In this document: positions 1,855 through 33,693 of the stretch, one piece after another
Layout: the number at the start of each line of letters is the position of its first letter
Position numbering within the stretch: the stretch's first letter is position 1
Source of the DNA: a virus
Lineage: Duplodnaviria; Caudoviricetes
Strand: one strand, 5' to 3'
IMG/VR virus record: IMGVR_UViG_3300030095_003206
Location: 1 to 37,874 of that record
Length of the DNA: 37,874 bases
Program-made: the position numbers and the translations under genes
The notes under the pieces: model-generated
What the model saw: the letters and a program-made list of their open reading frames with translations, nothing else
The model's database searches: none
What the model was told of the DNA's origin: nothing

Positions 1855-3474
1855 TTACTGCTGCCCCATTTCCGCTATTTGAGCCACTTTCAGACCGGCA
1901 TCGGCCAGTTGTGGCGCAGAGTTCATGCCCGCTTGCATGGCTTCCGCTTGCTGGCGTTGACCGCGCATTTCCGCAACTTCTTCCTCATCGCGCAAGATAC
2001 GTTGCGGAGCGCCGTTAATTTCAGCCAGGGACCGCGTAATTTCGTCCGTATTGAAATTATCCATGACCGATGGGTCAACGGCCGCAATGGCCTGGACACT
2101 TTCAAGAGTACGCAAGATGCCGACGCCTTCTGGTGCCCGCATGGCTTGGGTCAACGGCGAAACATACTCAACTTCGTATTCTCCCGTTGCTTCTTCCAAT
2201 GCCGGCGGCATGGCCGGGATCATCCCTTGCTCTGCCAACACGGCAAACTCGCGCTCAATGAGCGGGCCTAACGCCTCAGACTGTTGACGGCCGACCGTGG
2301 GCGCTAACAGCGCGCCTTTCTCTTGGGCGCGTTGCAAGACTTCGGTAGCCGTCATCTGTGGGCTTTCCACAAGGATTTGAAATAGGGTCACAAGGAAACT
2401 GTCTTGAATAACCTTGCGCCGTTGCTCCATCATTTCAAAGCCGATGTCTACACGCGCACCTGTATAAAGGGGTTGAATGGGCGCTTGGGACCGCCCATCC
2501 ATCCTTGCAAACGTCGCCGCGCCAGGCTTGGCATTGACGGGGAGGATTACGCCATCGTCTGCAATAATCAAAGGTGGGTCCACAGCCTTTTGACCAGCGC
2601 GGATAACCGTCTTTGACATTTCGTTAATCATCTTGATGTCGGGCAGGATGGTCATGGCGGGCGAACGGCCATAGACCTCACGCGGCCCGGTAACATAGCG
2701 ACTGACGATATACGGCATATCATCGAAGCCGCCTTCTTCAATCAGTTCGCGCTCGCCAGCTTCGTAGTAGCCAGAGAACCACGGGCTGTTGCGCCGGTCC
2801 CGTGCGGTGGGATCACGATCTGTGCGCGGGCAGACAAGGTGCAACAACTCTGTCTTTTCGTCGGGCTTGTCTTCCGCCGTCTTGCGAAGATTGTCGGACA
2901 GGTTGCCGTCTTCAAACATGCGGAGAGCTTGCCGGGCTGTTACCTGGAACTTACGGAACACAGTATCAATGCGGCCCATTTCGTTCTCAGCGATGTAGAG
3001 GTCCGACAAATGGATTTGCCGGTACATCAAACCGCCGTCAGGATGCTCATCAACAAAAAGAGCGCCCGTGCCGAACGCGCCTAGCGCCATATAACCTTCG
3101 TGCATTTCCTTAGAGAAACACGCTTTGGGCGAGTAGCGGTAGTTGAACATAATGCTTGTGACTTGGTCGAACCACAGGCGCACATCATGGTCGCGGTTAA
3201 GGACAGGATCGGTGGCGCGCAACTGGTGCCAGCGGGAACCTCGCGGGGTCAACAGGCTTTCAATGGCCGATGCAAAGCGTTCACAGGCAAGTGCAGCGGT
3301 GGCGTCATATAATTTTGATGTGCGTTTGTCGCCCGGTGTCAACTCGCCTGTGAAGATACGTGAACGCGGCAAGACCCGTTCAGCAATTTCTTCCCAATGG
3401 CCTTCCCACACGGACCTATCGTTCTTTAAACGAGAGTAGCGGGAGAAAACTTCGTCTGTGTCTGGAGCAGCCAT
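1855..3474 (-). CDS. Portal (head-tail connector) protein, T7 gp8/Bbp21-like
   Basis: 539 aa; YDATAALA, FGTG, YGRSPAM..LPDIKMIN, MTATEV..RAQEK..LLAPTVGR and EYVSPL motifs. Confidence 0.95.
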   Translation of the reverse strand: MAAPDTDEVFSRYSRLKNDRSVWEGHWEEIAERVLPRSRIFTGELTPGDKRTSKLYDATAALACERFASAIESLLTPRGSRWHQLRATDPVLNRDHDVRLWFDQVTSIMFNYRYSPKACFSKEMHEGYMALGAFGTGALFVDEHPDGGLMYRQIHLSDLYIAENEMGRIDTVFRKFQVTARQALRMFEDGNLSDNLRKTAEDKPDEKTELLHLVCPRTDRDPTARDRRNSPWFSGYYEAGERELIEEGGFDDMPYIVSRYVTGPREVYGRSPAMTILPDIKMINEMSKTVIRAGQKAVDPPLIIADDGVILPVNAKPGAATFARMDGRSQAPIQPLYTGARVDIGFEMMEQRRKVIQDSFLVTLFQILVESPQMTATEVLQRAQEKGALLAPTVGRQQSEALGPLIEREFAVLAEQGMIPAMPPALEEATGEYEVEYVSPLTQAMRAPEGVGILRTLESVQAIAAVDPSVMDNFNTDEITRSLAEINGAPQRILRDEEEVAEMRGQRQQAEAMQAGMNSAPQLADAGLKVAQIAEMGQQ

Positions 3475-3683
3475 TAGACCCCCATAAGTGTGGTTTTGCG
3501 GATTGCCGACACATCAGTGTTGCGCGGCGTTCCCATTAGTGTCGTTTGCATGCCGTTGCGCGGTGCAGAACCGCCGCCGTATGCTGCCGACGCATTACGC
3601 TGTGCCGTATCAAGACGGGCGCCCATCGATGTTGGCGGTAGCTTCTTACCCGCCGATTGACGCTGCATGGTCGGCACACACAC
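3474..3683 (-). CDS. Small Met-Cys / C-terminal TLMG protein (member 4 of array), putative virion/ejection peptide
   Basis: GTG start, MCVPT...RKTTLMGV; stop overlaps the portal ATG. Confidence 0.7.
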   Translation of the reverse strand: MCVPTMQRQSAGKKLPPTSMGARLDTAQRNASAAYGGGSAPRNGMQTTLMGTPRNTDVSAIRKTTLMGV

Positions 3684-3684
3684 G

Positions 3685-3762
3685 TTACTTGCCTTTGGGC
3701 TTCATTGGTTTCTTCGGTGGTCTTCCGCGTTTGGACCCATATGTTCCCTTCCCTTTAGGCAT
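3685..3762 (-). CDS. 25-aa lysine-rich microprotein
   Basis: Manual translation MPKGKGTYGSKRGRPPKKPMKPKGK; AGGAG RBS; fits exactly between neighbours. Confidence 0.7.
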   Translation of the reverse strand: MPKGKGTYGSKRGRPPKKPMKPKGK

Positions 3763-3771
3763 AGCGCACTC

Positions 3772-3918
3772 CTATTTCTTTTTTGCTTTGGATTTGGGAA
3801 AGCCAGCTTTCATGTTGCTGTAGGCTTTCGATGAAATTGTTGACTTGCTCTTGGGCCGTGACGTGCCCGCCTTGCGGCGCTTATTGATGTTGGCATATAG
3901 GCCTGGTTTCTTTGCCAT
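3772..3918 (-). CDS. 48-aa basic microprotein
   Basis: MAKKPGLYANINKRRKAGTSRPKSKSTISSKAYSNMKAGFPKSKAKKK; AGGAGG RBS before ATG 3918, which shortens the 126-aa track ORF. Confidence 0.75.
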   Translation of the reverse strand: MAKKPGLYANINKRRKAGTSRPKSKSTISSKAYSNMKAGFPKSKAKKK

Positions 3919-3920
3919 GC

Positions 3921-4154
3921 TTAACCTCCTAGCAGTGTCTTCCGGCCAATGTTGGCCTGTTCCAAAACACCGGATGGGCCGGTCATTAACGTAGAGCGCC
4001 GTCCGCTGGCCTGAACGCGGGCGCGGCGTCGGGAAGGCGCTCCTTGAACAGATGGCAGTCTGCCGCCAGACCCCCCGCCTACAGGTGCGGATGGTTCTGT
4101 GCCCATTGGCGCGGGTGGCGGTGAAGGCGGTTTGGGATCGGGAGTAATACACAT
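3921..4154 (-). CDS. Small Met-Cys / KTLLGG protein (member 3), Pro-rich
   Basis: MCITPDPKPPSPPPAP...RRSTLMTGPSG...GRKTLLGG. Confidence 0.8.
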   Translation of the reverse strand: MCITPDPKPPSPPPAPMGTEPSAPVGGGSGGRLPSVQGAPSRRRARVQASGRRSTLMTGPSGVLEQANIGRKTLLGG

Positions 4155-4155
4155 A

Positions 4156-4482
4156 CTAGCCCCCTAACAAACCTTTGCCGCTGCCGCCGCCAAGCAGACC
4201 GCGAACTGAGGGAAACCCACCGTGTGAACGCAAATTGAGAGTACGCAATCCACCAAGGACAAGACCCCCCGGCACGGCCATCTGGGCTGCTGCCAAGCCT
4301 TTTTCAAATGGCGTAGACATACTTGACGTTGGGTCTAGCGCGATACTTGCTGCTTCGTTAGTTGACAACCCACTGTGGCCAGCGCCGCTAACAGTGCCGA
4401 CATTCCGCGTGTTGGCAAACGTGTCAACCTGTGTTTGGCGCTCAATAGTATTGCTGCCGTTGTCATTCGAACCACCACACAT
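4156..4482 (-). CDS. Small Met-Cys / GLLGG protein (member 2)
   Basis: MCGGSNDN...RGLLGGGSGKGLLGG; 1-nt gaps to both neighbours. Confidence 0.75.
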   Translation of the reverse strand: MCGGSNDNGSNTIERQTQVDTFANTRNVGTVSGAGHSGLSTNEAASIALDPTSSMSTPFEKGLAAAQMAVPGGLVLGGLRTLNLRSHGGFPSVRGLLGGGSGKGLLGG

Positions 4483-4483
4483 A

Positions 4484-4705
4484 TCAAGCCCCTAACAATG
4501 TTTTTTTACCTACATTGGCTTCCGTTTCGTCGCCCATAGACCCCGTCAGGATTGTTGAACTTCTGCCCTTCATAGAAAGCCGCCTTTTCCGCATGGCTCG
4601 TGCTTCCTCATTGACGCGAGGATCATCCCGCGTGGGCGGGGGTGGCGGGGGTGCCGGCGGATCGGGCATCTTCGGCATCTTTGGTGCCAATGGTCCAACA
4701 CACAT
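4484..4705 (-). CDS. Small Met-Cys / KTLLGA protein (member 1), Pro-rich, T7 gp6.7-like start
   Basis: ATG 4705 with GGAG RBS: MCVGPLAPKMPKMPDPPAPPPPPP...GRSSTILTGSMG...GKKTLLGA. Confidence 0.82.
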   Translation of the reverse strand: MCVGPLAPKMPKMPDPPAPPPPPPTRDDPRVNEEARAMRKRRLSMKGRSSTILTGSMGDETEANVGKKTLLGA

Positions 4706-5189
4706 CTTCGCTCTCCAATCTGGTCTGCGTCCACGAATAGCAATGATAAGGCACTCTGTTTTGCCCGTAGTCTTCAACGGTGGCTTCGCGGACGGCGCCT
4801 AGTAATTCCAACCATCTGTGCGCCACATGGTGATTGTCATGGCTCCAACATTCAGCCCGTATGAACCCGGCATCAATCAGTGTCGGCATCACCGTCCGAT
4901 TGATGTGGCGCGTCACGCTGATTGCAACTTTCGGCCACCTGTCCGTTGCGAACATCCAGACGCTGGCCACTTTGGGCCTGACTTCCAATGCCCCCCAGGT
5001 AGCGACAGGGACCACCCCATAGCGCGCAACATACTTCAAGCCGTTTCCAGCCACAGTCCCCAGAGCCAAACTCTCTGGCGTCTGGGCAGATGTCACTGGC
5101 CATATTTCTTCTGCGTCCAACTCACGCATATTGCGGGCAATATCGGCAACGTCAGGATAGCGGGCATCAATAATATTAACCAAACTCAT
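4623..5189 (-). CDS. GNAT-fold acyltransferase-like protein (T7 gp13/DUF2833-like)
   Basis: IARNMRELDAEEI, VWMFATD and N..AHRWLELLGA motifs; directly follows terL. Confidence 0.75.
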   Translation of the reverse strand: MSLVNIIDARYPDVADIARNMRELDAEEIWPVTSAQTPESLALGTVAGNGLKYVARYGVVPVATWGALEVRPKVASVWMFATDRWPKVAISVTRHINRTVMPTLIDAGFIRAECWSHDNHHVAHRWLELLGAVREATVEDYGQNRVPYHCYSWTQTRLESEDVCWTIGTKDAEDARSAGTPATPAHAG

Positions 5190-6507
5190 TGTAATCACTG
5201 ACTACAACGGGTTGGCCCCCCGGCTGGCGCCCTGTCTTTGCCATCATGGCGTAATCACTGCTGTCACCGTCACGCAATCCAATGGCGGCATAGCGCATGG
5301 CGTCGGCAGAATGCGAACTGGCATCGTGGTTGGGCTTCTCCCGCCACGTCTGGTTCCGGTCATTCCACTGCCTGTGGTAATGCCTTAGATACTTCAGCCC
5401 CAGGCTACAGTTGTGGCGGTCAAAATGTAGGGTGGGGAGTAACCCCCTCACTGCTTCGATGCCGTCCTGTAGCGATAATTTGGCGACAATGGTCGGGCGT
5501 ACCCCCAACCCCTGCAACATTTCATAACGTGATGAACCACTGCCCAACTCGCGGACAAGAACATCGTGAGGAAAATAATGGTCGCCATAAACATATGGCT
5601 GAGAACGGAGGTGAGCAACGTAGTGATGCAATCCTTCACCGCTGCTTTCATAATAATCTATAATCCTATGCCCGGTTTCGCCGCGGATAGATTGGCCAAA
5701 CCATATGGCCGTACTATCGCGCATCCCTAAGTCAAAAGCGGTCCAGACGGGCACGTTCGGCTCCCAAGGGACTGACCCAATTTGGCTCTGTAACTCCATG
5801 CGGTCCAACATCTTGGCGTAGTAGGCGCCGACAAGGGCCGCTGACCAGGAACATTCAAACTCCTGATCATATTGGCTCTCATCCATGGTATCCCGTGCGG
5901 CCTTCAGTTCCTTCTCAGGAATAATCCCGGTCTGGCTGGCAGGGAAGCGCATGGCGAACCACTCATCGTCGCCATCTTCCATGTTCCGAATGGCCGTATC
6001 GTAAATCGTTCGGAATTGATTGTCGCCTCTGGGCGTTCCGATCCACAGGCACTTGCCCGTACCAAAGTCAGACAACGCGGGTCTTACAATTTCGGGGAAC
6101 AACCTCGCATTCATGTCCGCATATTCGTCAAGAACGGCGGCATCAAGCCTCAAACCCCTGAGAGCATCGGGATTTTCCGATCCCAGCAGCCATATCCGCT
6201 TACCATCAGGCAAGTCACAGCGGAGTTCGGCCTCGTTAAAGCGTACCTGGGGGATGACCCCGGCATATTCCCGCAACATAATCCACGCAATCCGCTTGGC
6301 ACTCGAATACGTGGGCGCAATATAAGCCCCCTGCGCGTTTTTACGGTCACAAGTAAGGATTTCACGCAATAACCAGTTGATGGCCATGACGGTCTTACCA
6401 AAGCGCCGGTGACACACAGCAACATTAAAGCGCCGGCATTGCTCATGGAACGTCTGCTGCAACGGCCTGGGCGTATAAGGTATCGTAACCCTGTTAGGTT
6501 CAGTCAC
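5176..6507 (-). CDS. terL: Terminase large subunit
   Basis: YTPRPLQ, Walker A HRRFGKT, LRG, Walker B AVLDE, GTPRG, nuclease DLGMRD...HSADAMRY; probable GTG start at 6507 overlapping the upstream stop (GTGA). Confidence 0.96.
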   Translation of the reverse strand: MTEPNRVTIPYTPRPLQQTFHEQCRRFNVAVCHRRFGKTVMAINWLLREILTCDRKNAQGAYIAPTYSSAKRIAWIMLREYAGVIPQVRFNEAELRCDLPDGKRIWLLGSENPDALRGLRLDAAVLDEYADMNARLFPEIVRPALSDFGTGKCLWIGTPRGDNQFRTIYDTAIRNMEDGDDEWFAMRFPASQTGIIPEKELKAARDTMDESQYDQEFECSWSAALVGAYYAKMLDRMELQSQIGSVPWEPNVPVWTAFDLGMRDSTAIWFGQSIRGETGHRIIDYYESSGEGLHHYVAHLRSQPYVYGDHYFPHDVLVRELGSGSSRYEMLQGLGVRPTIVAKLSLQDGIEAVRGLLPTLHFDRHNCSLGLKYLRHYHRQWNDRNQTWREKPNHDASSHSADAMRYAAIGLRDGDSSDYAMMAKTGRQPGGQPVVVSDYNEFG

Positions 6508-7229
6508 GCTTGCATGTCCTGTTCGGCTATCACGCACAGAAAATCACAATCAGGGGCAATGGGCGCCGTCACCGCGTAATCAGCAGGGATTTCGTCAATA
6601 AACACCCGCTCATCATCAATCCTCGCCAGCCGCACCCCCAGGTCGCGACTTAACTTCACCATGCGTTCAAACTTGTCTGGAAACTCTTTGCGCACCAAAG
6701 CCCAATAGGCGGGGCTTGTCGCCTTCACACAGGGCAAGCAATTGGCGTTTGGAAACCCCAGAGCGTAAGTTAAAGGCGGGCTTATCCCCGCCGTCTTAAC
6801 CATTGATAAACAAGCACTTTTTGTAATTCCCCGCTCAATCAAGGGGAACTCACAAACCAAATCCGGCCAATGCTCCCGCAAGGCTTCCGCCCGCTTCACA
6901 TCAGGGCCGTCAGCCGTATACCCAAACACATGAACATCCCCCGGCCGCTCAAACTCCAGGCGGGGCTTAATCTTCAATTCGCCCGTGCAGGGCGCGCCAG
7001 CAATGCCAGCAAGAAACTTACGCTTTTCCCAGACTTCCCAGGTATCCGCATACTTGTCGCTCTGCAAAAACGTAATTTCCTGGCCAAACCAGGCCACGCA
7101 ATCACGCATAAACCGCGCATTATCCTCATGCTCAGAACCCGTGCGGCAGTACGCAATGACATCAGGGCACGACAATTTCGTGGCAACGGCAGATGCCGCC
7201 CCACAGGAGAACCAACTGATACGGCGCAA
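6504..7229 (-). CDS. PAPS-reductase-like / PP-loop (adenine nucleotide alpha-hydrolase) family protein
   Basis: N-terminal SWFSCGAASAV PP-loop-like motif; APCT..LK, FGYTAD, FPLIE, NANCLPCVK and terminal CDFLC cysteines. Confidence 0.75.
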   Translation of the reverse strand: MRRISWFSCGAASAVATKLSCPDVIAYCRTGSEHEDNARFMRDCVAWFGQEITFLQSDKYADTWEVWEKRKFLAGIAGAPCTGELKIKPRLEFERPGDVHVFGYTADGPDVKRAEALREHWPDLVCEFPLIERGITKSACLSMVKTAGISPPLTYALGFPNANCLPCVKATSPAYWALVRKEFPDKFERMVKLSRDLGVRLARIDDERVFIDEIPADYAVTAPIAPDCDFLCVIAEQDMQA

Positions 7230-9988: not shown

Positions 9989-10004
9989 GGGCAATTGTGC
10001 CCGC
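9989..10004 (+). repeat. GGGCRATTKTGCCY hairpin repeat, copy 3
   Basis: GGGCAATTGTGCCCGC, 16/16 identical to copy 2, before the GGAGA RBS. Confidence 0.85.
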
Positions 10005-10027
10005 AAACTCTAGACGGAGAAAATATC

Positions 10028-10762
10028 GTGAATTTTTATTTGAACCCCAAATCCAAAAACAAGAAAACCGGCCAAATGCCCGTATCAACAAGTGATCGCG
10101 GCACATGTCCCGACGCTTGCCCATTCAAGAATAACGGATGCTACGCCGAAGGCTATCCGTTAAAAGGCCGCTGGGATGAAGTAACATCCGGCAAACGTGG
10201 CGGTTTGTTTTCCGATTTCGTTAACCAGGTCGCCGCATTGCCCGCTAATATTTTATGGCGCCATAACCAGGCCGGCGATTTGCCCGGCGATGGCAAAAAC
10301 ATAGATCGCGGCGGGCTTTTGGCGCTTGCTGGCGCGAACGCCGGAAAGCGTGGTTTTACCTTTTCCCATTACGACGTGGAATCGAACAAACATAATCGCG
10401 CTGCGATAGCGACGGCGAACGCCAAGGGGTTCACAATCAATCTATCGGCGAACAATCTAGATCACGCCGATAAGTTAACGGACCTTGGAATTGGGCCGGT
10501 CGCCACGGTGTTACCTATTCAATATGAGCGCCAAAGCAAAAAGGGCGTTTGGTTGGAAACGATAAACGAATATCGCGAACGCCTTAAAACATTGCCGGAA
10601 ACAACGCCCAATCAAAAAAGGTTCGCCGTATGCCCGGCGACCTATCGCGACGATGTTACTTGCAAAACGTGCGGGCTTTGCCAAAAGCAATCGCGCCGCG
10701 TTATTGTCGGTTTTCCGGCCCATGGTAACAGCAAGCGCAAAGCTAGCGCCGTGGCCGCATAA
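10028..10762 (+). CDS. Cys-rich phage protein, GP88/DUF7227-like (possible Fe-S or Zn enzyme)
   Basis: GTG start after GGAGA; NKKTG..PVS, TCPDACPF...GCYA, WRHNQAGD, INLSAN, VCPA...TCKTCGLC and VGFPAHG motifs. Confidence 0.75.
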   Translation: MNFYLNPKSKNKKTGQMPVSTSDRGTCPDACPFKNNGCYAEGYPLKGRWDEVTSGKRGGLFSDFVNQVAALPANILWRHNQAGDLPGDGKNIDRGGLLALAGANAGKRGFTFSHYDVESNKHNRAAIATANAKGFTINLSANNLDHADKLTDLGIGPVATVLPIQYERQSKKGVWLETINEYRERLKTLPETTPNQKRFAVCPATYRDDVTCKTCGLCQKQSRRVIVGFPAHGNSKRKASAVAA

Positions 10763-10831
10763 ACGCGCTACAAGCGCGATGTATCGCCATTGCCGGGATT
10801 CCCTAGGGATTGCCCGGCTTTGGCCGTTAGA

Positions 10832-10845
10832 GGGCGATTTTGCCC
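10832..10845 (+). repeat. GGGCRATTKTGCCY hairpin repeat, copy 4
   Basis: GGGCGATTTTGCCC before the AAAGGT RBS; preceded by a long GCCGGG/CCCGGC stem. Confidence 0.75.
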
Positions 10846-10862
10846 ATATGAAAGGTAACGAA

Positions 10863-11111
10863 ATGAAAACGCCACAAATCACGCCACCATGGTCAACGGG
10901 TATCTATATCGGAAACGGTGTAGTTGCCGAACCGAAACCTAAGAAAATCCGTTTGGAATGCGCCGATTGCGGCGACAATTTAATTTCAATGGATGCATCG
11001 CCCTATTGGGATGTTGACACCCAGCAATGGGAAATCGGCGAAATTCGTACCGATGAAATATACTGCACTCAATGCGGTAGCGAAAGCATTGACGAAATGG
11101 AAATGGAATGA
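10863..11111 (+). CDS. Zinc-ribbon hypothetical protein
   Basis: CADCG...CTQCGS pairs; ATG 10863 with AAAGGT RBS. Confidence 0.72.
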   Translation: MKTPQITPPWSTGIYIGNGVVAEPKPKKIRLECADCGDNLISMDASPYWDVDTQQWEIGEIRTDEIYCTQCGSESIDEMEME

Positions 11112-12686: not shown

Positions 12687-13210
12687 GGTTTAAATCCTTT
12701 TACAGCTTGGTTAATTACGGATCGTGTTCGGTTAGGCGTCAGCTTCTTTTCCAGCGCATCGCGCATTTTTGCCCGCCGATTGCGCCAATCAATTTCTTCC
12801 TTTAGTTCGTGCCAGGACGGCCACCACATGGACTGATCCGGCCATTTTGTCAGAACCTCATGCACAATGTCGGCTGGGTATTGCTCTAATCGCGAACCGT
12901 AAGCCTCAACGGCCAAGTCTAGCGTAATCTGGTCATCCTTCTTGCGCTTGGTCAGGCTGAATACTTCTGCGATTAGCATGCCCAACGCCTTTGCCGGCAT
13001 CGGCTGGCTGGCGGCGTCAATGGCTGCAATTGCGGCCGTAAGGTCATCAACGGGGCAGGGGCCATCAATCGTGTAGGCGACGATGTTGTAGTCACGGTCA
13101 ACCACCGCGTCGAGCGACGAAGCCACCGACGGCGGCAGCAATGCTTCCAGATGGGCTTCCACTGCCACCGTGGATTGCAATTGGCGTTGGATTAATTGCT
13201 GTTGTGTCAT
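12683..13210 (-). CDS. Putative replication accessory protein / helicase loader
   Basis: LEQYPADIV....KW.....WWPSWHEL motif; immediately downstream of the initiator. Confidence 0.55.
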   Translation of the reverse strand: MTQQQLIQRQLQSTVAVEAHLEALLPPSVASSLDAVVDRDYNIVAYTIDGPCPVDDLTAAIAAIDAASQPMPAKALGMLIAEVFSLTKRKKDDQITLDLAVEAYGSRLEQYPADIVHEVLTKWPDQSMWWPSWHELKEEIDWRNRRAKMRDALEKKLTPNRTRSVINQAVKGFKP

Positions 13211-13829
13211 CAGACCATCGCTCCTGGTTTAACCATGTGCTTGGATAAGGAATGTAATTTTTGTCCTGGCCGCTTGCCGCCGCGATGAATCGATCACGGC
13301 CCTGGCAGAGGGTTTCAAAATCGGTTTTTTTAAGGGCTGCTTTGAACGCTTTTCGTGCGCCACCTTTGCCAACTTTTCGGGGCCAGGTTTCATACCATTG
13401 CTCAAACAGATTATCTGCTTTGAGCGAAGGAGTTACGTTAGTAACTCCTATACTTGTAGGTGTAGGTATAGGGGCATTGCGTTCGCATACCTGTTTTTCC
13501 TTTTGCCATCGGGACTTAGCGGAAGCGCTATTCTTTCTCGCTTTTTTTCTCACGTACTCATATTCTTCTTTAAGACGCTTTTGTGTGATGTGATTTCCGG
13601 TGGAAATAAAGAACTCATCCAGCAGATTTTTGACCAGGTTTTCCATCTGATCATCGGTGGCCCGCAAGCGCCTTTTTACCCACTCCAAATCGTTCGGAAT
13701 TTTGCAGTCTGGCGACCGCCAGATCGTCATCAAAAGCATCAGATATAGACCATGTTCCTCATGCGTCAGGTGCAACGTGTCGGCCATATAGGCATCGGTC
13801 CACAAAGGTAGGTGAGGGAACTTAGCCAT
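13098..13829 (-). CDS. DUF1376 (YdaU-like) replication initiator protein
   Basis: PLWTDAYMADTLHLTHEEHGLYLMLL...W, QKRL..E and C-terminal FEQWYETWPRKVGKGGARKAF...YPSTWLNQERW. Confidence 0.85.
   Translation of the reverse strand: MAKFPHLPLWTDAYMADTLHLTHEEHGLYLMLLMTIWRSPDCKIPNDLEWVKRRLRATDDQMENLVKNLLDEFFISTGNHITQKRLKEEYEYVRKKARKNSASAKSRWQKEKQVCERNAPIPTPTSIGVTNVTPSLKADNLFEQWYETWPRKVGKGGARKAFKAALKKTDFETLCQGRDRFIAAASGQDKNYIPYPSTWLNQERWSDDTTAINPTPIAIHGGSGSPSGSIAAAVGGFVARRGG
13400..13483. other. Candidate replication origin inside the initiator gene
   Basis: Perfect 9-bp inverted repeat AGGAGTTAC-GTTA-GTAACTCCT (13428-13449), a second hairpin at 13400-13425 and TRTAGG x3 (13455-13472), all in the interdomain linker. 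Confidence 0.45.
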
Positions 13830-16094: not shown

Positions 16095-16943
16095 ATGACA
16101 GAAGAACTGAAATCCTCAACGACGCTTGCCGATGGCGGCGTCTATGAGCATGGCGGCGGTACGGATGACCTGATAGTTGAGTATCATCGGGCATCTACTA
16201 CCCGTCAAGGCGCCGACGGCCTGGGTATCGATGCACAAAGAAAAATGTGCATGGATTACCTTAACGGCGGCAAGTGGAAAGTGATAGGCGAATTTATTGA
16301 GGTTGAAAGCGGCGCCAAATCGGAGAAGGAGCGGCCGCAACTGGATGCCGCGCTGGCGCTTTGTCAGAAGCACGGCGCCACGCTGTTGGTGGCGAAGCTG
16401 GACAGACTAAGCCGTTCAGTGGCATTTGTGTCCCGGCTCATGGAATCGGGCATCAAGTTTGTGTGTGCCGATCAACCCCATGTGTCTGACCTGACTATCC
16501 ACATCATCGTGGCCATGGCCCAGTACGAGCGGGTACAGATCAGCGATAGGGTCAAAAAAACCCGCGGTGAAATGAAGCGCATCATTAAGGAAGACGGGTT
16601 CTATGCGACCAAGTCGTCTAATCGCCAAAAGAAACTGACCAAGCTAGGATCTGATAATTGGGACGAGGTGCAGAAGGAAGGGCAAAAGGTCAAGCAGACT
16701 AGGGCCGACGCCTATGCGCTTAGCGTGTGGCCTGAAATCGTGCAGTGCCGGCAGCTTGGCATGACAACTATGCGGCTAATCGCGAAAGAACTGACCCGGC
16801 GTGGCGTTCAGACCCGCGCACGGCAGCGCCAGATTGACAAAGACAAGGCCGTGTTTGGCAAGCCTGGGTATGGCGAAGGGGAATGGCACTGGCACCCGCA
16901 ACAGGTCAAGGCCATCATTGATCGCGTCGAAGGTGATAAATAG
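16095..16943 (+). CDS. Serine recombinase (resolvase/invertase catalytic domain plus C-terminal DNA-binding region)
   Basis: YHRASTTRQ (catalytic Ser), GLGIDAQ, EVESG...RPQLDAAL, LLVAKLDRLSR, AQYER..IS.R.K and IAKELTRRGVQT...WHPQQV. Confidence 0.92.
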   Translation: MTEELKSSTTLADGGVYEHGGGTDDLIVEYHRASTTRQGADGLGIDAQRKMCMDYLNGGKWKVIGEFIEVESGAKSEKERPQLDAALALCQKHGATLLVAKLDRLSRSVAFVSRLMESGIKFVCADQPHVSDLTIHIIVAMAQYERVQISDRVKKTRGEMKRIIKEDGFYATKSSNRQKKLTKLGSDNWDEVQKEGQKVKQTRADAYALSVWPEIVQCRQLGMTTMRLIAKELTRRGVQTRARQRQIDKDKAVFGKPGYGEGEWHWHPQQVKAIIDRVEGDK

Positions 16944-16956
16944 TTGACAGTCAGAG

Positions 16957-16985
16957 TTAAAGCAGACACAAAACAGAGTTATAAT
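16957..16985 (+). promoter_or_regulatory. Possible internal promoter
   Basis: TTAAAG - 17 bp - TATAAT; CAGAGTTA direct repeat overlaps both boxes. Confidence 0.4.
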
Positions 16986-17001
16986 AGAAAAGGAATTTAC
17001 T

Positions 17002-17157
17002 ATGTATATGCCAAAACCGTGTAGTAATTACACCTATAAGACAGAACTTTTAATCAAAACCTTGAAAATGCTGGGCGGGGTTACGCTGTTTGCGGCCCTA
17101 ATGGCAGGGGTCTATGCCTGGACGATCATGGGCGCCGCGATGTTGGGGGTTCTGTGA
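17002..17157 (+). CDS. 51-aa membrane microprotein
   Basis: MYMPKPCSNYTYKTELLIKTLKMLGGVTLFAALMAGVYAWTIMGAAMLGVL; AAAGGAA RBS. Confidence 0.68.
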   Translation: MYMPKPCSNYTYKTELLIKTLKMLGGVTLFAALMAGVYAWTIMGAAMLGVL

Positions 17158-17366
17158 TGAACCTCTTCCAATACGCGGATTATACCGCATTGCAGGGGGA
17201 TCTGAAAGTCGCTCAATCCCGCTGCCAAACACGCCGCATCAATCACATCCACAACGAACTGAAGGCCGTCGTTACTGACATTCTACGTGACGAGTATGGC
17301 CCGACTGTTCCCGTCAAGAACCAAGTGGGTTCGGCCCACGCCAGCGACATGGGGGGTACAAGATAA
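17154..17366 (+). CDS. Hypothetical protein
   Basis: 70-aa ORF coupled to both neighbours. Confidence 0.65.
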   Translation: MMNLFQYADYTALQGDLKVAQSRCQTRRINHIHNELKAVVTDILRDEYGPTVPVKNQVGSAHASDMGGTR

Positions 17367-17367
17367 A

Positions 17368-18315
17368 ATGGTCGGTAAACTGACATCAAACTTGATGTGT
17401 AGCTGTAGTATCTTGCCTTACATTATGGGCTTATCGCCGTACAAAACGCCCAACGAACAGTTGCTGGAAATGTGGGCTGAGAAGCAGGGCGAGGGCAAAG
17501 AGTGGGTAGGCAATGAAAACACCCATTGGGGCAATGTCCTTGAGCCAACAGTCCTTACGGAAGGGTGCAGCCGCCTAGGCCTCGTTCCCGAACTTGATAT
17601 AACCGAACCTGTTGTGCATCCAACACTGCCGCTGGCGGGTAGCCTGGATGGCAGGGCCGATGGCAAGAGTATGACAATCCACCATGACCCGTCCAAGGGC
17701 ATCTATGTGGTCGGCAATAGCCGCATTGTGTTGGATGGCATCGGTGTCCTTGAGAGCAAGGTGACGCGGAGCCGGGCAGAAGACTTCCCACCGATGTGGC
17801 GTGGGCCTGTCCAGGTGCAGGGTCAGATGATGTGCGGCGGCTATAAATGGGCGGCACTTATCATCCTATATGGCGGCGTGGAAATGCGGATCTTCCTGTT
17901 TACCCTGCATGCCGGCACAGAGAAATCGATCACCGAAGCATGCCTGGATTTGGATAGACGGCTAAACGCCGACGAAATTGAATATTACGATCTGGCCGAT
18001 GCGGCCGATGCCGCGCTTGTTTATTCGCTTGGCGACAAGGAAGAACCTATCGATCTGCCAGCCGGGTTTGACATTCTCTGCGAAGAATACTTGTTGCTGA
18101 AAGAGAAGATTAAAGAAGGCGGCGAAGCACTTGGAGTGCTAACCGCGGAAATCCAAAGAAAGATGGGCAACCACACGTCTGGCCTGGCCGGAAACTACCG
18201 TGTGTCTTGGCCTGTCAAAAAATATCGTGAGCAACCTGAGAAGATCGTACCGGCTAAGCCGGCGCATCAGGCTCGTCAGAAAACCATCAGTGTGAAGGAA
18301 ATGAAAAATGGGTGA
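17368..18315 (+). CDS. YqaJ-like (lambda exonuclease family) recombination nuclease
   Basis: IMGLSPYKTP, HWGNVLEP, AGSLDG, LESKVT and QVQGQMMC motifs; ATG 17368. Confidence 0.9.
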   Translation: MVGKLTSNLMCSCSILPYIMGLSPYKTPNEQLLEMWAEKQGEGKEWVGNENTHWGNVLEPTVLTEGCSRLGLVPELDITEPVVHPTLPLAGSLDGRADGKSMTIHHDPSKGIYVVGNSRIVLDGIGVLESKVTRSRAEDFPPMWRGPVQVQGQMMCGGYKWAALIILYGGVEMRIFLFTLHAGTEKSITEACLDLDRRLNADEIEYYDLADAADAALVYSLGDKEEPIDLPAGFDILCEEYLLLKEKIKEGGEALGVLTAEIQRKMGNHTSGLAGNYRVSWPVKKYREQPEKIVPAKPAHQARQKTISVKEMKNG

Positions 18316-19315
18316 AGTAGCTATCAAACAGAGCGGAATCCTGACGCCAAGGAATATGGGCGAGGCCATGCAATTTGCGGAAACAATGGCTGTGTCTGCG
18401 TTCTGCCCTAAAGCATTCCAGGGCAAGCCGGCAGATATTGTGGTCGCCGTCCAGTGGGCAAGCGAAGTAGGGCTGGCACCATTGGCCGCGATGCAGAACA
18501 TGGCGGTCATCAATGGCAAGCCAAGCCTGTATGGTGATGGCATGATGGCGCTGATCACTGGCCATCCCGAATACGTGAGCCATAAGGAATGGCGAGAAGG
18601 TGACGAAGCCTTTTGCACGATTGTTCGTATGCGGTTCAGCGAGAAAATTGAAACCACAAGATCGTTCAGCATGGCCGATGCCAAGCGGGCAGGGCTGGAC
18701 GGCAAGGGACCGTGGCGGTCCTACCCGAAACGCATGTTGCAAATGCGGGCGCGTGGGTTCGCGGCCAGGGACAGTTTTCCTGACGCGCTCAGTGGCGTCA
18801 TTATCAAAGAAGAGGCCATGGACTATCCGACGAAGCCGGATCAACCCAAAGATATTACCGATCAGGTGGTGGTTGCACCGGCGAACCCGATGGACGCGAC
18901 GTTTGGGGGGGATGTTCCAGAAAGTGACCCGCCAGAATTGCCTGAGAGCAACGCCGTGGATGTTTCTGATGCTGGTGTCCCAGAAAATATAGATGTTGCT
19001 GAGAGCGCAACAGAGGACGACACAGACGAAGGCGACGAACGCGCCTGGGAAATGAACGAGGAAAGCGGCATTAAGGAGTATCCCACGGCAGACCAGTGGA
19101 TGGCTGGCATGGAGAAGGCTTGGAAGGACATCGAAGCCGACAAGGACATGAGTTTTGAGGACCGGCGCCACGAAATTTCCGAACACAAAAAAGACCATGA
19201 CGATACGATTGATCGGCTCAAGGCAGAACACCCTGACAAGGCGGAAGCGTTTGGCAATGATTACAAGAAAATATTGCGGCGCTTGTCGGCCAAGGCAAAG
19301 GAAGCAAACAAATGA
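18308..19315 (+). CDS. recT: RecT/Redbeta-like single-strand annealing protein with acidic C-terminal extension
   Basis: GKPADI.VA...GLAP..AMQN.AVINGKPSLYGD, FSM.DAKRAGL.GK.PW..YP.RML..RAR.FA.RD.FPD.L.G; follows YqaJ. Confidence 0.88.
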   Translation: MGEVAIKQSGILTPRNMGEAMQFAETMAVSAFCPKAFQGKPADIVVAVQWASEVGLAPLAAMQNMAVINGKPSLYGDGMMALITGHPEYVSHKEWREGDEAFCTIVRMRFSEKIETTRSFSMADAKRAGLDGKGPWRSYPKRMLQMRARGFAARDSFPDALSGVIIKEEAMDYPTKPDQPKDITDQVVVAPANPMDATFGGDVPESDPPELPESNAVDVSDAGVPENIDVAESATEDDTDEGDERAWEMNEESGIKEYPTADQWMAGMEKAWKDIEADKDMSFEDRRHEISEHKKDHDDTIDRLKAEHPDKAEAFGNDYKKILRRLSAKAKEANK

Positions 19316-25287: not shown

Positions 25288-27771
25288 TTATCGCACGGCT
25301 TCGGTTGGTCTTACGGCGTCAAAATACTCTTGGCCGGTTTCGTCACGAATGCGCTGTTCGTAGTTCCTTGCCCATCCAGGGTTAAGGTATTCGCTTATGT
25401 TCCAGAAAAGCAGATAGTCCAATGCAAGCCGCGCATAAAAGATGTTGGCACCTGGAAGCATCGATTTGGCTACGCGGTATCCTGTCTGGCCAAAGCGGTC
25501 GAGGTCTCCTTCAATTAACTGCTTTGGCATTCCCGAAAGACGGGTAATATTTCCAATAACAGGGCCACCGGCAATTTCGGCAAAACCTTCATTAAACCGT
25601 GAGTCGCCGGCAACCATGCCCATAATCGTATCGCCGTAGAAACCCAACCCGCCACCTTGCATGAGGCTTCTAAACATTACTTTTCCCAAGTTTGCAGGGC
25701 TTTCCGTTAGGTCTATTGGCTTCTTCCCTTTAGCCAGGTCTTTTAATGTTGATGCAATGTAGCCATAGACCATTGAGGTCAGCAGTATTTTGACTAGCAT
25801 TCCCGTTCGGTGGCCTTCGTTGGCCTTGCTAAAGCCGCGAGACAATATTTCCATGCCGTAAGTTACAGAGAACGACTTGAGGTGCATGAACAGATTGAAA
25901 AATTCTGACTTAACTGTGCCGCGCTCTAAACCTCTAGAAAAGACATTTGAGCGGGCGCCTGGCGTTAGAATTGCGCTGTCAGCAAATCCAGTAAAAAACC
26001 CGTTAATACGAATTTGAGCATCAACATCATCGATGGCACTCATGTCGTGGTATTTAATTCCATCAACCTCACGCACCACGCTGTTCATTAAATCAAAATC
26101 TTCGGGCGTCAGGCCGTAGGCTTCCATTTCACTTCGCAGCGACATTTCCAGATCGTCAAATTTTTTGCCTGCTTGTTTGGCAATGAAATTGGACAGACTA
26201 ATTCCAACGGCTGTTTTCAAGCTGTCGTTCATCCAGTTCATGCCGGTCACGCGCATAAGCCAACTAACAGTGCTGGCACCTTGTCCATCCAAAGCATCGT
26301 TGCCAAGCCACCGCGATTGTATACTGGCCATCAAGGCATCCATGCCGACGCCAAGACTATCGGCAATTTCTCTTGCCTCTCCAGTGCGGCGCCCGCCACG
26401 CCCGCCAACAGCTTCTGGAATTAAACCGCCAAGGACAGAAAGGTTTGCTTCAAAGAACGGAATACCAATTTCGTTGAGGCGTATCGATGCCGTGCCTATG
26501 TCACCAATAGATGCAACAGTAGTGCCGCCAAGCACTGCCGCCGATGTCAGGTTTTTGGCCAGATTAGACCCACGCGCTAGATAATAACCTGATTGCCCAA
26601 GCCCTGGTAACGCATTGCCCTGGCCGGTCACCTCATCATAAAGCTGATCTGTTTTAGACTTAAATTTTGTTTCCCTCAGTTCAGCAACAACCGCATAATT
26701 GTCTTCATCAATAGCGCGATTTAATGCCCGCTGATAAAACTCATCCAGCATACTTCTCGGGTTCGGCCCCAAGTGGATCATGGCCGCAACGGAGTCCGAC
26801 ATTCCCAACAACTGGTTTACAAATGCCGTGCCGATATGCTTGTTACCGTAAGCCTGGTTATATGTCCACGCGCTTTCCCCGTCTTGCTTGAAGTGCAAGG
26901 ATCGTGCGTGAGACAGTTTCTTGCCCATGTTGGCAGGGCCGGTAAACCCAGGTGAGTCATCTAGGTTTCCCATCAAGTCGGTGCGCTTGCCCACCGTAAT
27001 TGAACCATAGGCGCCTTTAAGAAACGCTTTCTTATCCGCGGCACTCATTGGGCGCCCGAACGTGCGCTCTTCGTCCAGCAAGGGCAATATATCATTATAC
27101 CATTGCTCAAACCCTGCCCGCGTCACCCGCGTCTTATCATGCGACTGTTTAACGATACGGCCAGGAATACGGCCTATGTCGGCACCGCTACGGTTGGCCT
27201 GTTTTCGCAAAACCTCGTTAGTCGCTTCCATTGCTTCGGCTACGGCCCTGGCAATGTCATTGCCCGATGATCCTGGGTTGTCCACTTCTTGCACAAGGTA
27301 ACGGCCATTCTTTTTGTTTTGCAAAAACCCAATGGCCACGTTTCTTGGTATACCGCTTTTTTCTATTGTCTGGTTGAACACGGCCTTGGCCATCGATGCC
27401 AACCCGCGTGAACTGCTTTCAATGGACTGCTTGTACTGGCTCTTGCCCATTTCACCGGCAAGGATCGCGTGGAGCATACGCGGCACTTCCTCAATAGGTG
27501 TTTCTCTCAGCTTGGTAATAAACGCCATGCGAGTACGGTAGTTAATGGCCGCGTTGCGCTTAAGAATAGCCGCTTCCCGAACCGCATCTGTCACACGGTT
27601 CTGAATAGCCTCATCAACGGCGCGTTGTAAGTCCGTTACCTTTTGCTCTGCCTTGTTTGATTTAATTGTGTCAACAATATCGACAACCTCTGCCAGCAGT
27701 TCTTCCGCTTGCTTTTCGTTCAGATCGGGCATGGCATCGCGAACGGACTGAATGCACTTATCAATGGCCAT
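25288..27771 (-). CDS. Internal virion (ejection) protein, large
   Basis: ATG 27771 (MAIDKCI, TGATG-coupled); R.LHFK, GT..SEF.....HLKSF, QGGGLGFYGD and LPGANIFYAR motifs; located before the tail fibre genes. Confidence 0.8.
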   Translation of the reverse strand: MAIDKCIQSVRDAMPDLNEKQAEELLAEVVDIVDTIKSNKAEQKVTDLQRAVDEAIQNRVTDAVREAAILKRNAAINYRTRMAFITKLRETPIEEVPRMLHAILAGEMGKSQYKQSIESSSRGLASMAKAVFNQTIEKSGIPRNVAIGFLQNKKNGRYLVQEVDNPGSSGNDIARAVAEAMEATNEVLRKQANRSGADIGRIPGRIVKQSHDKTRVTRAGFEQWYNDILPLLDEERTFGRPMSAADKKAFLKGAYGSITVGKRTDLMGNLDDSPGFTGPANMGKKLSHARSLHFKQDGESAWTYNQAYGNKHIGTAFVNQLLGMSDSVAAMIHLGPNPRSMLDEFYQRALNRAIDEDNYAVVAELRETKFKSKTDQLYDEVTGQGNALPGLGQSGYYLARGSNLAKNLTSAAVLGGTTVASIGDIGTASIRLNEIGIPFFEANLSVLGGLIPEAVGGRGGRRTGEAREIADSLGVGMDALMASIQSRWLGNDALDGQGASTVSWLMRVTGMNWMNDSLKTAVGISLSNFIAKQAGKKFDDLEMSLRSEMEAYGLTPEDFDLMNSVVREVDGIKYHDMSAIDDVDAQIRINGFFTGFADSAILTPGARSNVFSRGLERGTVKSEFFNLFMHLKSFSVTYGMEILSRGFSKANEGHRTGMLVKILLTSMVYGYIASTLKDLAKGKKPIDLTESPANLGKVMFRSLMQGGGLGFYGDTIMGMVAGDSRFNEGFAEIAGGPVIGNITRLSGMPKQLIEGDLDRFGQTGYRVAKSMLPGANIFYARLALDYLLFWNISEYLNPGWARNYEQRIRDETGQEYFDAVRPTEAVR

Positions 27772-33003: not shown

Positions 33004-33693
33004 TTAATCCCCCAATAAACTTGTGCCGGCGCCGTAGCGGTACTGCCTATAGCCAGCAGTTGCTAATTCTTTTGCTGCGCCAATTCCGGCACTTGTCATT
33101 GCCGTGGCTGCGTTGGTGCGGTAGCGAGCAGCAGCGGCTTCTTGCCCTGTTGCTTGTTGCAGATAAGCGTCGGCCTGTGTCTCGCCCTTGTAGATAATAG
33201 CAAGGCGCTCTAGTGATCCTTGCGTTTCCGTTTCTAGGGCAACGGCATCAGGCGTTCCCTCATCTATAACCACGCCGCTTGAGCCACCGAAACCTACTCT
33301 TTGCGATGAAATCAACTTTCGCCGCTCAAGGTCAAATCTATCCGCATCAAACTCAGCGGCGCGGCGGGCCATCAGCGCATTGTTCTCAGAAATCTTTTTA
33401 TTGTAGGCCATCATGCCGGCTTGGTACTGGTAATTGCCTTCAGCAATGGCGCCTTGATAAAGAGAGCCAACCGCTGACATCCCGGCACCGGCAAGGTTAA
33501 AGGCACTTCCAGCCCCCATACCAGAAAACATGCTCCCAATGCCCGTAGCAATTGAGCCTGAGAGAGGCGCAAAAACTCCAGCAGAACCAAGCAGTCCAGT
33601 AGTGGCGCCCCCCATAGCCATTGCAGTTGCTCCGCCAGCAGCAGCCGCACCGGCAGTAGTGGCGGCAGTGCCAACCAATAACGGAATACACAT
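33004..33693 (-). CDS. Internal virion protein, T7 gp14-like
   Basis: Met-Cys start, Ala/Gly-rich hydrophobic N-terminus, Q.VGFG.SSGV...GTP; ends TSLLGD; directly after nozzle. Confidence 0.8.
   Translation of the reverse strand: MCIPLLVGTAATTAGAAAAGGATAMAMGGATTGLLGSAGVFAPLSGSIATGIGSMFSGMGAGSAFNLAGAGMSAVGSLYQGAIAEGNYQYQAGMMAYNKKISENNALMARRAAEFDADRFDLERRKLISSQRVGFGGSSGVVIDEGTPDAVALETETQGSLERLAIIYKGETQADAYLQQATGQEAAAARYRTNAATAMTSAGIGAAKELATAGYRQYRYGAGTSLLGD

Follow-up and report, generated by a model that had tools for sequence, protein, structure and literature searches.

A Met-Cys small-protein array linked to a gp13-family GNAT gene in the head-tail module of a T7/epsilon15-type podophage

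The whole phage record IMGVR_UViG_3300030095_003206 (37,874 bases, all of it analyzed and hereafter called the window), which has direct terminal repeats and represents a complete podophage, carries a gene for a GNAT-fold (GCN5-related N-acetyltransferase) protein of the T7 gp13 family, followed by four small genes (p1 to p4) whose products start with Met-Cys. Comparison with relatives revealed that two unrelated gene families at separate loci, i.e., the small gene following the GNAT and the gene for the gp14-like ejection protein, switch residue 2 together. The locus represents the known T7/epsilon15 IVP-A module in a variant form whose small-protein array is expanded, and its value lies in the putative enzyme-substrate link that it offers for gp13. 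On balance, though with reserve, we favor the reading that the gp13-family GNAT would acylate the exposed Cys1 of p1 to p4 and of gp14 during assembly, which would license portal docking and early ejection.

The window locus is a T7/epsilon15-type head-tail module. On the minus strand its genes run in the order terL, GNAT, the four Met-Cys genes (with two basic open reading frames, ORFs, among them), portal, scaffold and capsid, and continue across the record ends with adaptor, nozzle, gp14-like gene and three large internal virion proteins. The features under study are the following (aa, amino acids):

5176..6537, minus strand: terL, terminase large subunit (phrog_2, E 2e-35), the upstream boundary; start codon not fixed
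4623..5189, minus strand: GNAT-fold protein of the T7 gp13 (IVP-A) family (phrog_308, E 7e-13)
4484..4705, minus strand: p1, 73 aa, MCVG...GKKTLLGA, Pro-rich, with a basic GRSSTILTG motif (phrog_831, E 6e-17)
4156..4482, minus strand: p2, 108 aa, MCGG...GKGLLGG, Gly-rich; a variable slot
3921..4154, minus strand: p3, 77 aa, MCIT...GRKTLLGG, a p1 paralogue (phrog_831, E 3e-12)
3772..3918, minus strand: basic ORF of 48 aa, not Met-Cys (phrog_25774)
3685..3762, minus strand: basic ORF of 25 aa, not Met-Cys (translation and GGAG site)
3474..3683, minus strand: p4, 69 aa, GTG start, MCVP...RKTTLMGV, immediately 5′ of the portal gene, with TILxG and an RKTTLLGV-type tail
1855..3474, minus strand: portal protein of the T7/epsilon15/BPP-1 type (PF12236, E 3e-131; phrog_332)
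33004..33693, minus strand: gp14-like (IVP-B) ejection protein, the fifth Met-Cys gene, ending TSLLGD (phrog_418, E 5e-14)
33699-36464, minus strand: nozzle (phrog_376)

The original prediction had placed four Met-Cys genes with LLG or LMG ends between GNAT and portal, and both coordinates and motifs were confirmed. Its listing was nevertheless incomplete, as it overlooked the two non-Met-Cys ORFs that interrupt the array between p3 and p4 as well as the fifth Met-Cys gene.

Residue 2 and the type of GNAT

Loci were collected from four anchors, i.e., the GNAT (69 viral and 10 cellular), the portal (79), a second GNAT family (31) and the tail motif (120). The tail-anchored DNA scan covered 120 of about 620 stretches, with flanks for 80, and gave few independent points because epsilon15-like prophages dominate it. 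For the gene following the GNAT, starts were picked blind to residue 2 and GNATs were typed by their nearest seed; 220 GNAT hits yielded 207 with a downstream gene (13 dropped) and, at 70% identity, 58 representatives. With automatic start picking, the next gene began Met-Cys in 27/34 phrog_308 cases vs. 1/24 for other GNAT families. Six of the seven phrog_308 misses were start-picking errors with an adjacent Met-Cys ORF, bringing the count to 33/34 on inspection, and in the seventh (locus L002) a second GNAT comes next and a Met-Cys gp14 lies further on.

The gp14-like genes, compared over 58 distinct N-termini, followed the same division: at phrog_308 loci 32/35 began Met-Cys automatically and 35/35 after inspection, vs. 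0/21 at phrog_4177/1249 loci, while of two genes without a GNAT in view one had Cys and the other Ala. The 32 automatically scored Met-Cys proteins contain no cysteine besides Cys2. In Ralstonia phage DU_RP_I (L311 1344-1910), gp14 is annotated from a start 16 codons downstream of a Met-Cys start in the same frame, which has a ribosome site; annotation can therefore hide the motif.

Among the portal loci, 40/79 were examined, of which 12 (66-75% identity) have Met-Cys arrays and 28 (45-56% identity) do not. Most of the 18 low-identity loci read closely have an array of the same kind with Gly, Ser, Ala or Thr starts, and the GNAT of the Gly/Ser-start sister loci is phrog_4177, in the T7 position. 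T7, epsilon15 and P-SSP7 have both Met-Cys genes plus a phrog_308 GNAT, and both are lacking in phiKMV, SP6, BPP-1, HTVC010P, P22 and LUZ24. In L237, a Met-Cys gene identified through its tail led to the prediction of a phrog_308 gene, which was located on its contig, and six further annotated phages had the expected neighbors, both at DxxE-type GNATs (4/4) and at other GNATs (2/2). A portal tree with 44 rows, labelled by hand, shows 6 switches of the Cys label (5 forced); of 4 independent pairs, 3-4 are concordant and none discordant.

Met-Cys starts occur in 6/233 annotated genes of nine reference phages (T7 nearly whole, with 56 genes, and the others as structural regions, e.g., 24/64 genes for HTVC010P) and in none of the remaining 227. 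Since all 6 are pre-portal small proteins or gp14, the Met-Cys starts in the array are not due to chance. T7 gp6.7 and gp14, named as Met-Cys proteins in the original prediction, are indeed the only such genes among the 56 of T7.

In P22 gp7 (L188 9369-10058) and LUZ24 gp53 (L190 8258-9199), KGG comes after a leader and the end is Gly-rich; according to the P22 record, OpdA takes off 20 residues, which is another route to a new tip beside a GNAT-like gene.

The Met-Cys proteins, their tails and the GNAT

Cys2 is the sole cysteine of each of p1, p2, p3 and p4. Profile comparison aligned p1 end to end with epsilon15 gp3 (98.9%, E 1e-17), and p1 and p3 both match the epsilon15 gp3 family phrog_831 over their full length. 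No phrog_831 match was obtained for p2 and p4, whose likeness to p1 and p3 is confined to the ends. For p2, searches of PHROG, Pfam and Atlas gave no match (Atlas score 0.79), and its slot is gained, lost or refilled among relatives. A database search returned 5 homologues of p4, a separate conserved family in which Met-Cys is invariant in 19/19 aligned orthologues while the start codon alternates between ATG, GTG and TTG; judging from this retention, the weak GTG start of p4 is real. In L003 and L006, the gap 5′ of p4 is just 81 nt. As for the two interrupting ORFs, the 25-aa one has no PHROG or Pfam family match, and the 48-aa one probably falls outside the tagged set, though within the array.

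The small proteins had been described as variable cargo between shared ends. This holds for the p2 slot, but not for p1 and p4, whose mean column identities across orthologues are 65% and 54%, respectively, with conservation over the full length. No Pfam match to gp6.7 (PF17570) or gp7.3 (PF11653) was found for the window's small proteins, and sequence searches with p1, epsilon15 gp3 and the window gp14-like protein gave no solved relatives, phrog_831 being without a solved structure.

The gp14-like gene lies 28 kb from the GNAT, directly after the nozzle gene. Its product, likely the outer-membrane pore of the phage, gave no PF24072 match, a model that epsilon15 gp14 does pass.

The LLG tail was counted, together with residue 2, in the 120 best of 461 homologues. 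Gly occupies position 2 in 41 of them, Ser in 39, Cys in 33 and another residue in 7, and the strict tail ends 32/33 Cys and 77/87 non-Cys homologues, both tail counts being inflated by a search profile that includes the tail. It also adjoins three other GNAT families, and HTVC010P and BPP-1 have it without Cys. Across 38 hand-picked related loci, tailed Met-Cys genes number four in 5, three in 16, two in 11 and one in 6, with a pattern that overlooked one p4-type gene in five of the 38, and the Gly/Ser-start sister clade has 2-4 genes per array. Being common to Cys and non-Cys homologues and to other GNAT families, the tail is a general feature, and an array of four lies at the top of the normal range, i.e., it is an ordinary expansion. 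Of the expected co-occurrence with the GNAT, the part concerning Cys2 was borne out at two loci, and the LLG tail proved independent of GNAT type. The ideas that four copies exceed expectation, that LLG belongs to the Cys/GNAT system as its docking tag and that the middles are variable were rejected on the relatives' counts and conservation.

Two further protein types carry one of the ends. A 110-aa Met-Cys protein without an LLG tail lies between p4 and portal (L004 4679-5011, L007 5848-6180, L021 4393-4725); its matches are confined to unnamed viral clusters, and it is a candidate cargo with the N-terminal tag alone. Conversely, a protein of ~175 aa without a small second residue (L113 7412-7969, L122 1690-2217, L119 2780-3316, L133 4325-4855), in which the basic motif and LLG tail are joined to a GHLTxGEIVIP stretch, is a candidate cargo with the tail alone. 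Each end can therefore travel alone.

The window GNAT matches phrog_308 over residues 5-154 (core residues 1-158). T7 gp13 belongs to the same family (E 1e-42), as do epsilon15 gp13 and the P-SSP7 protein, so that the gp13-like assignment of the original prediction holds; compared directly, the window GNAT and T7 gp13 match weakly (E 0.035). PF11090 (Phage_T7_Gp13, "DUF2833" in GenBank labels) did not match the window GNAT, nor did any Pfam model at E <= 1. Since epsilon15 gp13 and the P-SSP7 protein also stay under the PF11090 cut-off, this model appears narrow. The family itself is large (1,301 clusters at E <= 1e-10).

A structure model of the window GNAT (pLDDT 88.6, with low confidence in the C-terminal tail) was assigned the GNAT fold by Foldseek (E 1e-8, at least 464 matches at E <= 0.001). 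Among the fold matches, archaeal Ard1, an N-terminal acetyltransferase, scores best (Z 16.8, root-mean-square deviation 2.2, 149 aligned; VIA); RimI and NatC score Z 15.0 and Z 14.9, respectively. R22, D25 and E28 are invariant across 54 aligned homologues, RxxDxxE is present in 150/150 of the best family representatives, and a motif-B-like segment, H..A.RWL..LG, is conserved in the alignment. The GNAT tree is compatible with one origin of phrog_308, but T7 gp13 is a long branch. The window gene sits between terL and the small genes and not between nozzle and gp14, and homologues at 37-42% identity occupy the T7-like position. The nearest relatives among cellular bins are from Alphaproteobacteria.

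The final 83 nt of the GNAT gene (4623-4705) are shared with p1. The GNAT tail encoded there differs in length among homologues and is poorly predicted; on these two grounds it probably results from read-through, and p1 translation would be coupled to that of the GNAT.

Proposed role of the GNAT and rival explanations

Host methionine aminopeptidase cleaves Met before Cys, Gly, Ser or Ala, and an N-terminal Cys reacts with thioesters. Because the Cys start tracks this enzyme family across many phages, the GNAT probably caps the bared tips. The four small Met-Cys proteins and the gp14-like protein are likely core or ejection proteins of a T7-type injection apparatus. As a non-virion assembly factor, the GNAT would bind the Cys-hydrophobic-Pro tip via its invariant RxxDxxE helix and move an acyl group, for which acetyl is our default guess, from a host thioester to the alpha-amine, perhaps via the thiol. 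The capped tip would dock on the portal barrel, the portal protein being the likely docking site of the small proteins, which, by extension from T7, would stack under the core and leave first into the outer membrane. The basic STILTG...LLG end may be an older element, independent of the enzyme, that attaches to DNA or to the portal-tail channel (cf. the T7 gp7.3 C-terminus), and other GNATs may do the same job on Gly, Ser or Ala in other podophages. Were this so, a phage-encoded modification step would be added to podophage assembly, the presence in so many podophages of a GNAT alongside ejection genes, mislabelled as a metabolic gene, would be explained, and short tags for loading proteins into virions would come into view. 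It would also account for T7 gp13, an assembly factor whose action is unexplained.

More speculatively, T7-type podophages might have an N-terminal code of their own, in which the gp13 family would be a Cys-specific fatty acyltransferase, possibly using acyl carrier protein (ACP), gp6.7-like proteins and gp14 would be signal-peptide-free lipoprotein mimics that anchor the channel in the outer membrane, and Met-Cys tip and LLG tail would be separable cargo tags; we regard this as doubtful. A search by one simple motif, a weak test, found no phage-encoded ACP in the window or the fetched loci.

Several observations weigh against acylation of the Cys tips. The GNAT-anchored test is blind to Met-Cys genes in phages without any GNAT, and the sign test on the independent pairs, drawn from hand-labelled rows, is not significant (p 0.125-0.25). 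An exception, L248, combines a Met-Cys small gene with a phrog_1249 GNAT and a gp14 starting Met-Ala, no phrog_308 having been found in this provirus, which is 65% complete. L161, L164, L167 and L172 pair phrog_1249 with a Met-Cys small gene and phrog_4177 with a Met-Gly gp14, and phiRIO-1 is without a recognized GNAT in this slot. The coenzyme A (CoA) pyrophosphate loop of GNATs has the motif R/QxxGxG/A, which only 5/150 of the best family representatives contain and which is absent from the aligned window GNAT, and GNATs that are not N-terminal acetyltransferases score within 1 Z of Ard1. As profile comparison of p1-type proteins with T7 gp6.7 and gp7.3 detected no homology (probability 1.0% and 0.1%, respectively), the virion location of p1-type proteins is by analogy. 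Finally, purified gp14 makes pores in vitro (passages of PMC8954989), and in the T7 structure paper the gp6.7 model begins at residue 2, with no mention of a modification in the available passages (PMC11784390).

Two arrangements of tandem or paired GNATs stand beside these exceptions. In L167, a phrog_1249-type GNAT precedes the Met-Cys small gene (1974-2686) and a phrog_4177-type one precedes the Met-Gly gp14 (10001-10928); Cys may thus have been adopted by another GNAT lineage, a canonical one. Rhizobium phage RHph_N65 (L002 5004-7267) has tandem phrog_308 and phrog_1249 GNATs, followed by two ejection-type genes, one Met-Gly and one Met-Cys. In every case inspected, phrog_308 goes with Met-Cys, but Met-Cys does not always imply phrog_308.

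The scarcity of the canonical CoA loop would fit a dead GNAT fold acting as a chaperone, which would recognize the free Cys tip and pass the proteins to the portal unmodified. This would account equally well for the co-variation of Cys2, and it agrees with the Pfam description of PF11090, the T7 family, as a probable scaffold protein and with T7 IVP-A being a non-virion morphogenesis factor (passages of PMC4819975). We nonetheless consider it rather unlikely, since SP6 gp28, phiKMV gp28 and BPP-1 Bbp24 are canonical PF00583 proteins with an intact motif in the same slot, which suggests that acyl transfer is what the slot supplies, and since the motif-B-like segment is conserved. Alternatively, Cys2 could be a portal-binding tip inherited with the module, with the GNAT acting elsewhere (on lysines or a host protein) and the correlation reflecting ancestry and linkage. 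Only four independent contrasts are at hand, most architectures place the GNAT next to gp14, Met-Cys small genes occur in two phrog_1249 lineages, and host-directed roles have been proposed for phage GNATs (passages of PMC6918029). Yet in the clade of the window, where several genes separate gp14 from the GNAT, gp14 changes with GNAT type all the same, the rule holds over T7-, epsilon15- and P22-like head-tail architectures, and no contrast runs the opposite way; linkage alone thus seems to us an unlikely explanation.

The original prediction had itself pictured an enzyme and substrate array resembling those of ribosomally synthesized and post-translationally modified peptides (RiPPs), in which LLG would be a GNAT-tied portal-loading tag and the middles interchangeable cargo. 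The freely varying p2 slot and the existence of tail-less Met-Cys proteins (L004, L007, L021) and tail-only proteins (L113, L122) are in its favor. However, tail and arrays are found without Cys and beside other GNATs, the middles of p1, p3 and p4 are conserved, and neither a leader peptide nor, among the window ORFs scanned, a protease was found. Since p1 is clearly homologous to gp3 of epsilon15, which has just one such gene, the locus is a T7/epsilon15 core-protein module and not a RiPP cluster, and the RiPP-like reading is very improbable. Portal docking through the C-terminus is likewise at odds with T7, where the segments that ring the portal barrel, twelve in number, are residues 2-15 of gp6.7, i.e., N-terminal (passages of PMC11784390).

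Neighboring genes and comparison with known systems

Elsewhere in the window, a PAPS-reductase-family gene (6504-7229, minus strand; phrog_424) lies immediately upstream of terL. A serine recombinase-like gene with RecE- and RecT-like genes (16095-19315, plus strand) and a primosomal initiator (13098-13829) look like a temperate-type replication arm. One internal virion protein (27771-30251, minus strand) weakly resembles ADP-ribosyltransferases over residues ~593-690 (ART-PolyVal E 0.002, PARP E 0.004, both below cut-off) and is possibly an injected enzyme.

Earlier papers mention phage GNATs next to virion genes, class them as metabolic or mention small pre-portal ORFs, with no substrate link in the passages available (PMC6775973, PMC6918029, PMC8954989, PMC4517105, PMC8811829, bioRxiv 10.64898/2026.06.25.734500). 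T7 IVP-A was found to resemble acetyltransferases, to be needed for morphogenesis and not to be retained in the virion (Hardies 2016, passages of PMC4819975, in which a word search for "cys" gave zero occurrences). Outside supplements and subscription papers, no paper was found that names a gp13 substrate or ties gp13 to the Cys-first gp6.7 or gp14, nor was one found on epsilon15 gp3.

RiPP arrays resemble the window locus in having several short genes with common terminal motifs and one enzyme alongside; unlike them, the window genes have no leader/core split and are homologous to virion-module genes, and no RiPP-type protease or exporter was seen among the window ORFs scanned (30 and 25 in two scans, several without a family). 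With the N-terminal acetyltransferases (Ard1, RimI/RimJ, NatA/NatC) the window GNAT shares the fold at about 10% identity, but not the canonical CoA loop, and GNATs with other substrates score equally.

Modules of the HTVC010P, MEP301, BPP-1, SP6 and phiKMV types also have a GNAT beside pre-portal small genes or gp14, and MEP301 has the window's order terL-GNAT-small-small. Their GNATs, however, are phrog_4177, phrog_1249 and phrog_3986, without the RxxDxxE helix, and residue 2 is Gly, Ser or Ala vs. Cys in the window; phrog_1249/3986 GNATs match canonical PF00583, whereas the window GNAT does not.

T7 shares with the window a phrog_308 gp13, small genes preceding the portal and Met-Cys starts in gp6.7 and gp14. 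Like gp6.7, the window's small genes are pre-portal, with a Met-Cys-hydrophobic start and early Pro/Lys. T7 gp6.7 is a core protein that builds the outer-membrane channel with gp14, and residues 84-98 of gp7.3 contact nozzle and DNA (passages of PMC11784390). Unlike T7, the window has no T7-type RNA or DNA polymerase among the ORFs covered by the same two scans. Epsilon15 has the same three families as the window in gp3, gp13 and gp14 (phrog_831, phrog_308 and phrog_418), as well as the same portal family. It differs in having one small gene vs. four and in placing its GNAT between nozzle and gp14 rather than before the array, yet its gp3 and gp14 both begin Met-Cys, as in the window, and its gp3 carries a STLLTG motif and an LLG tail.

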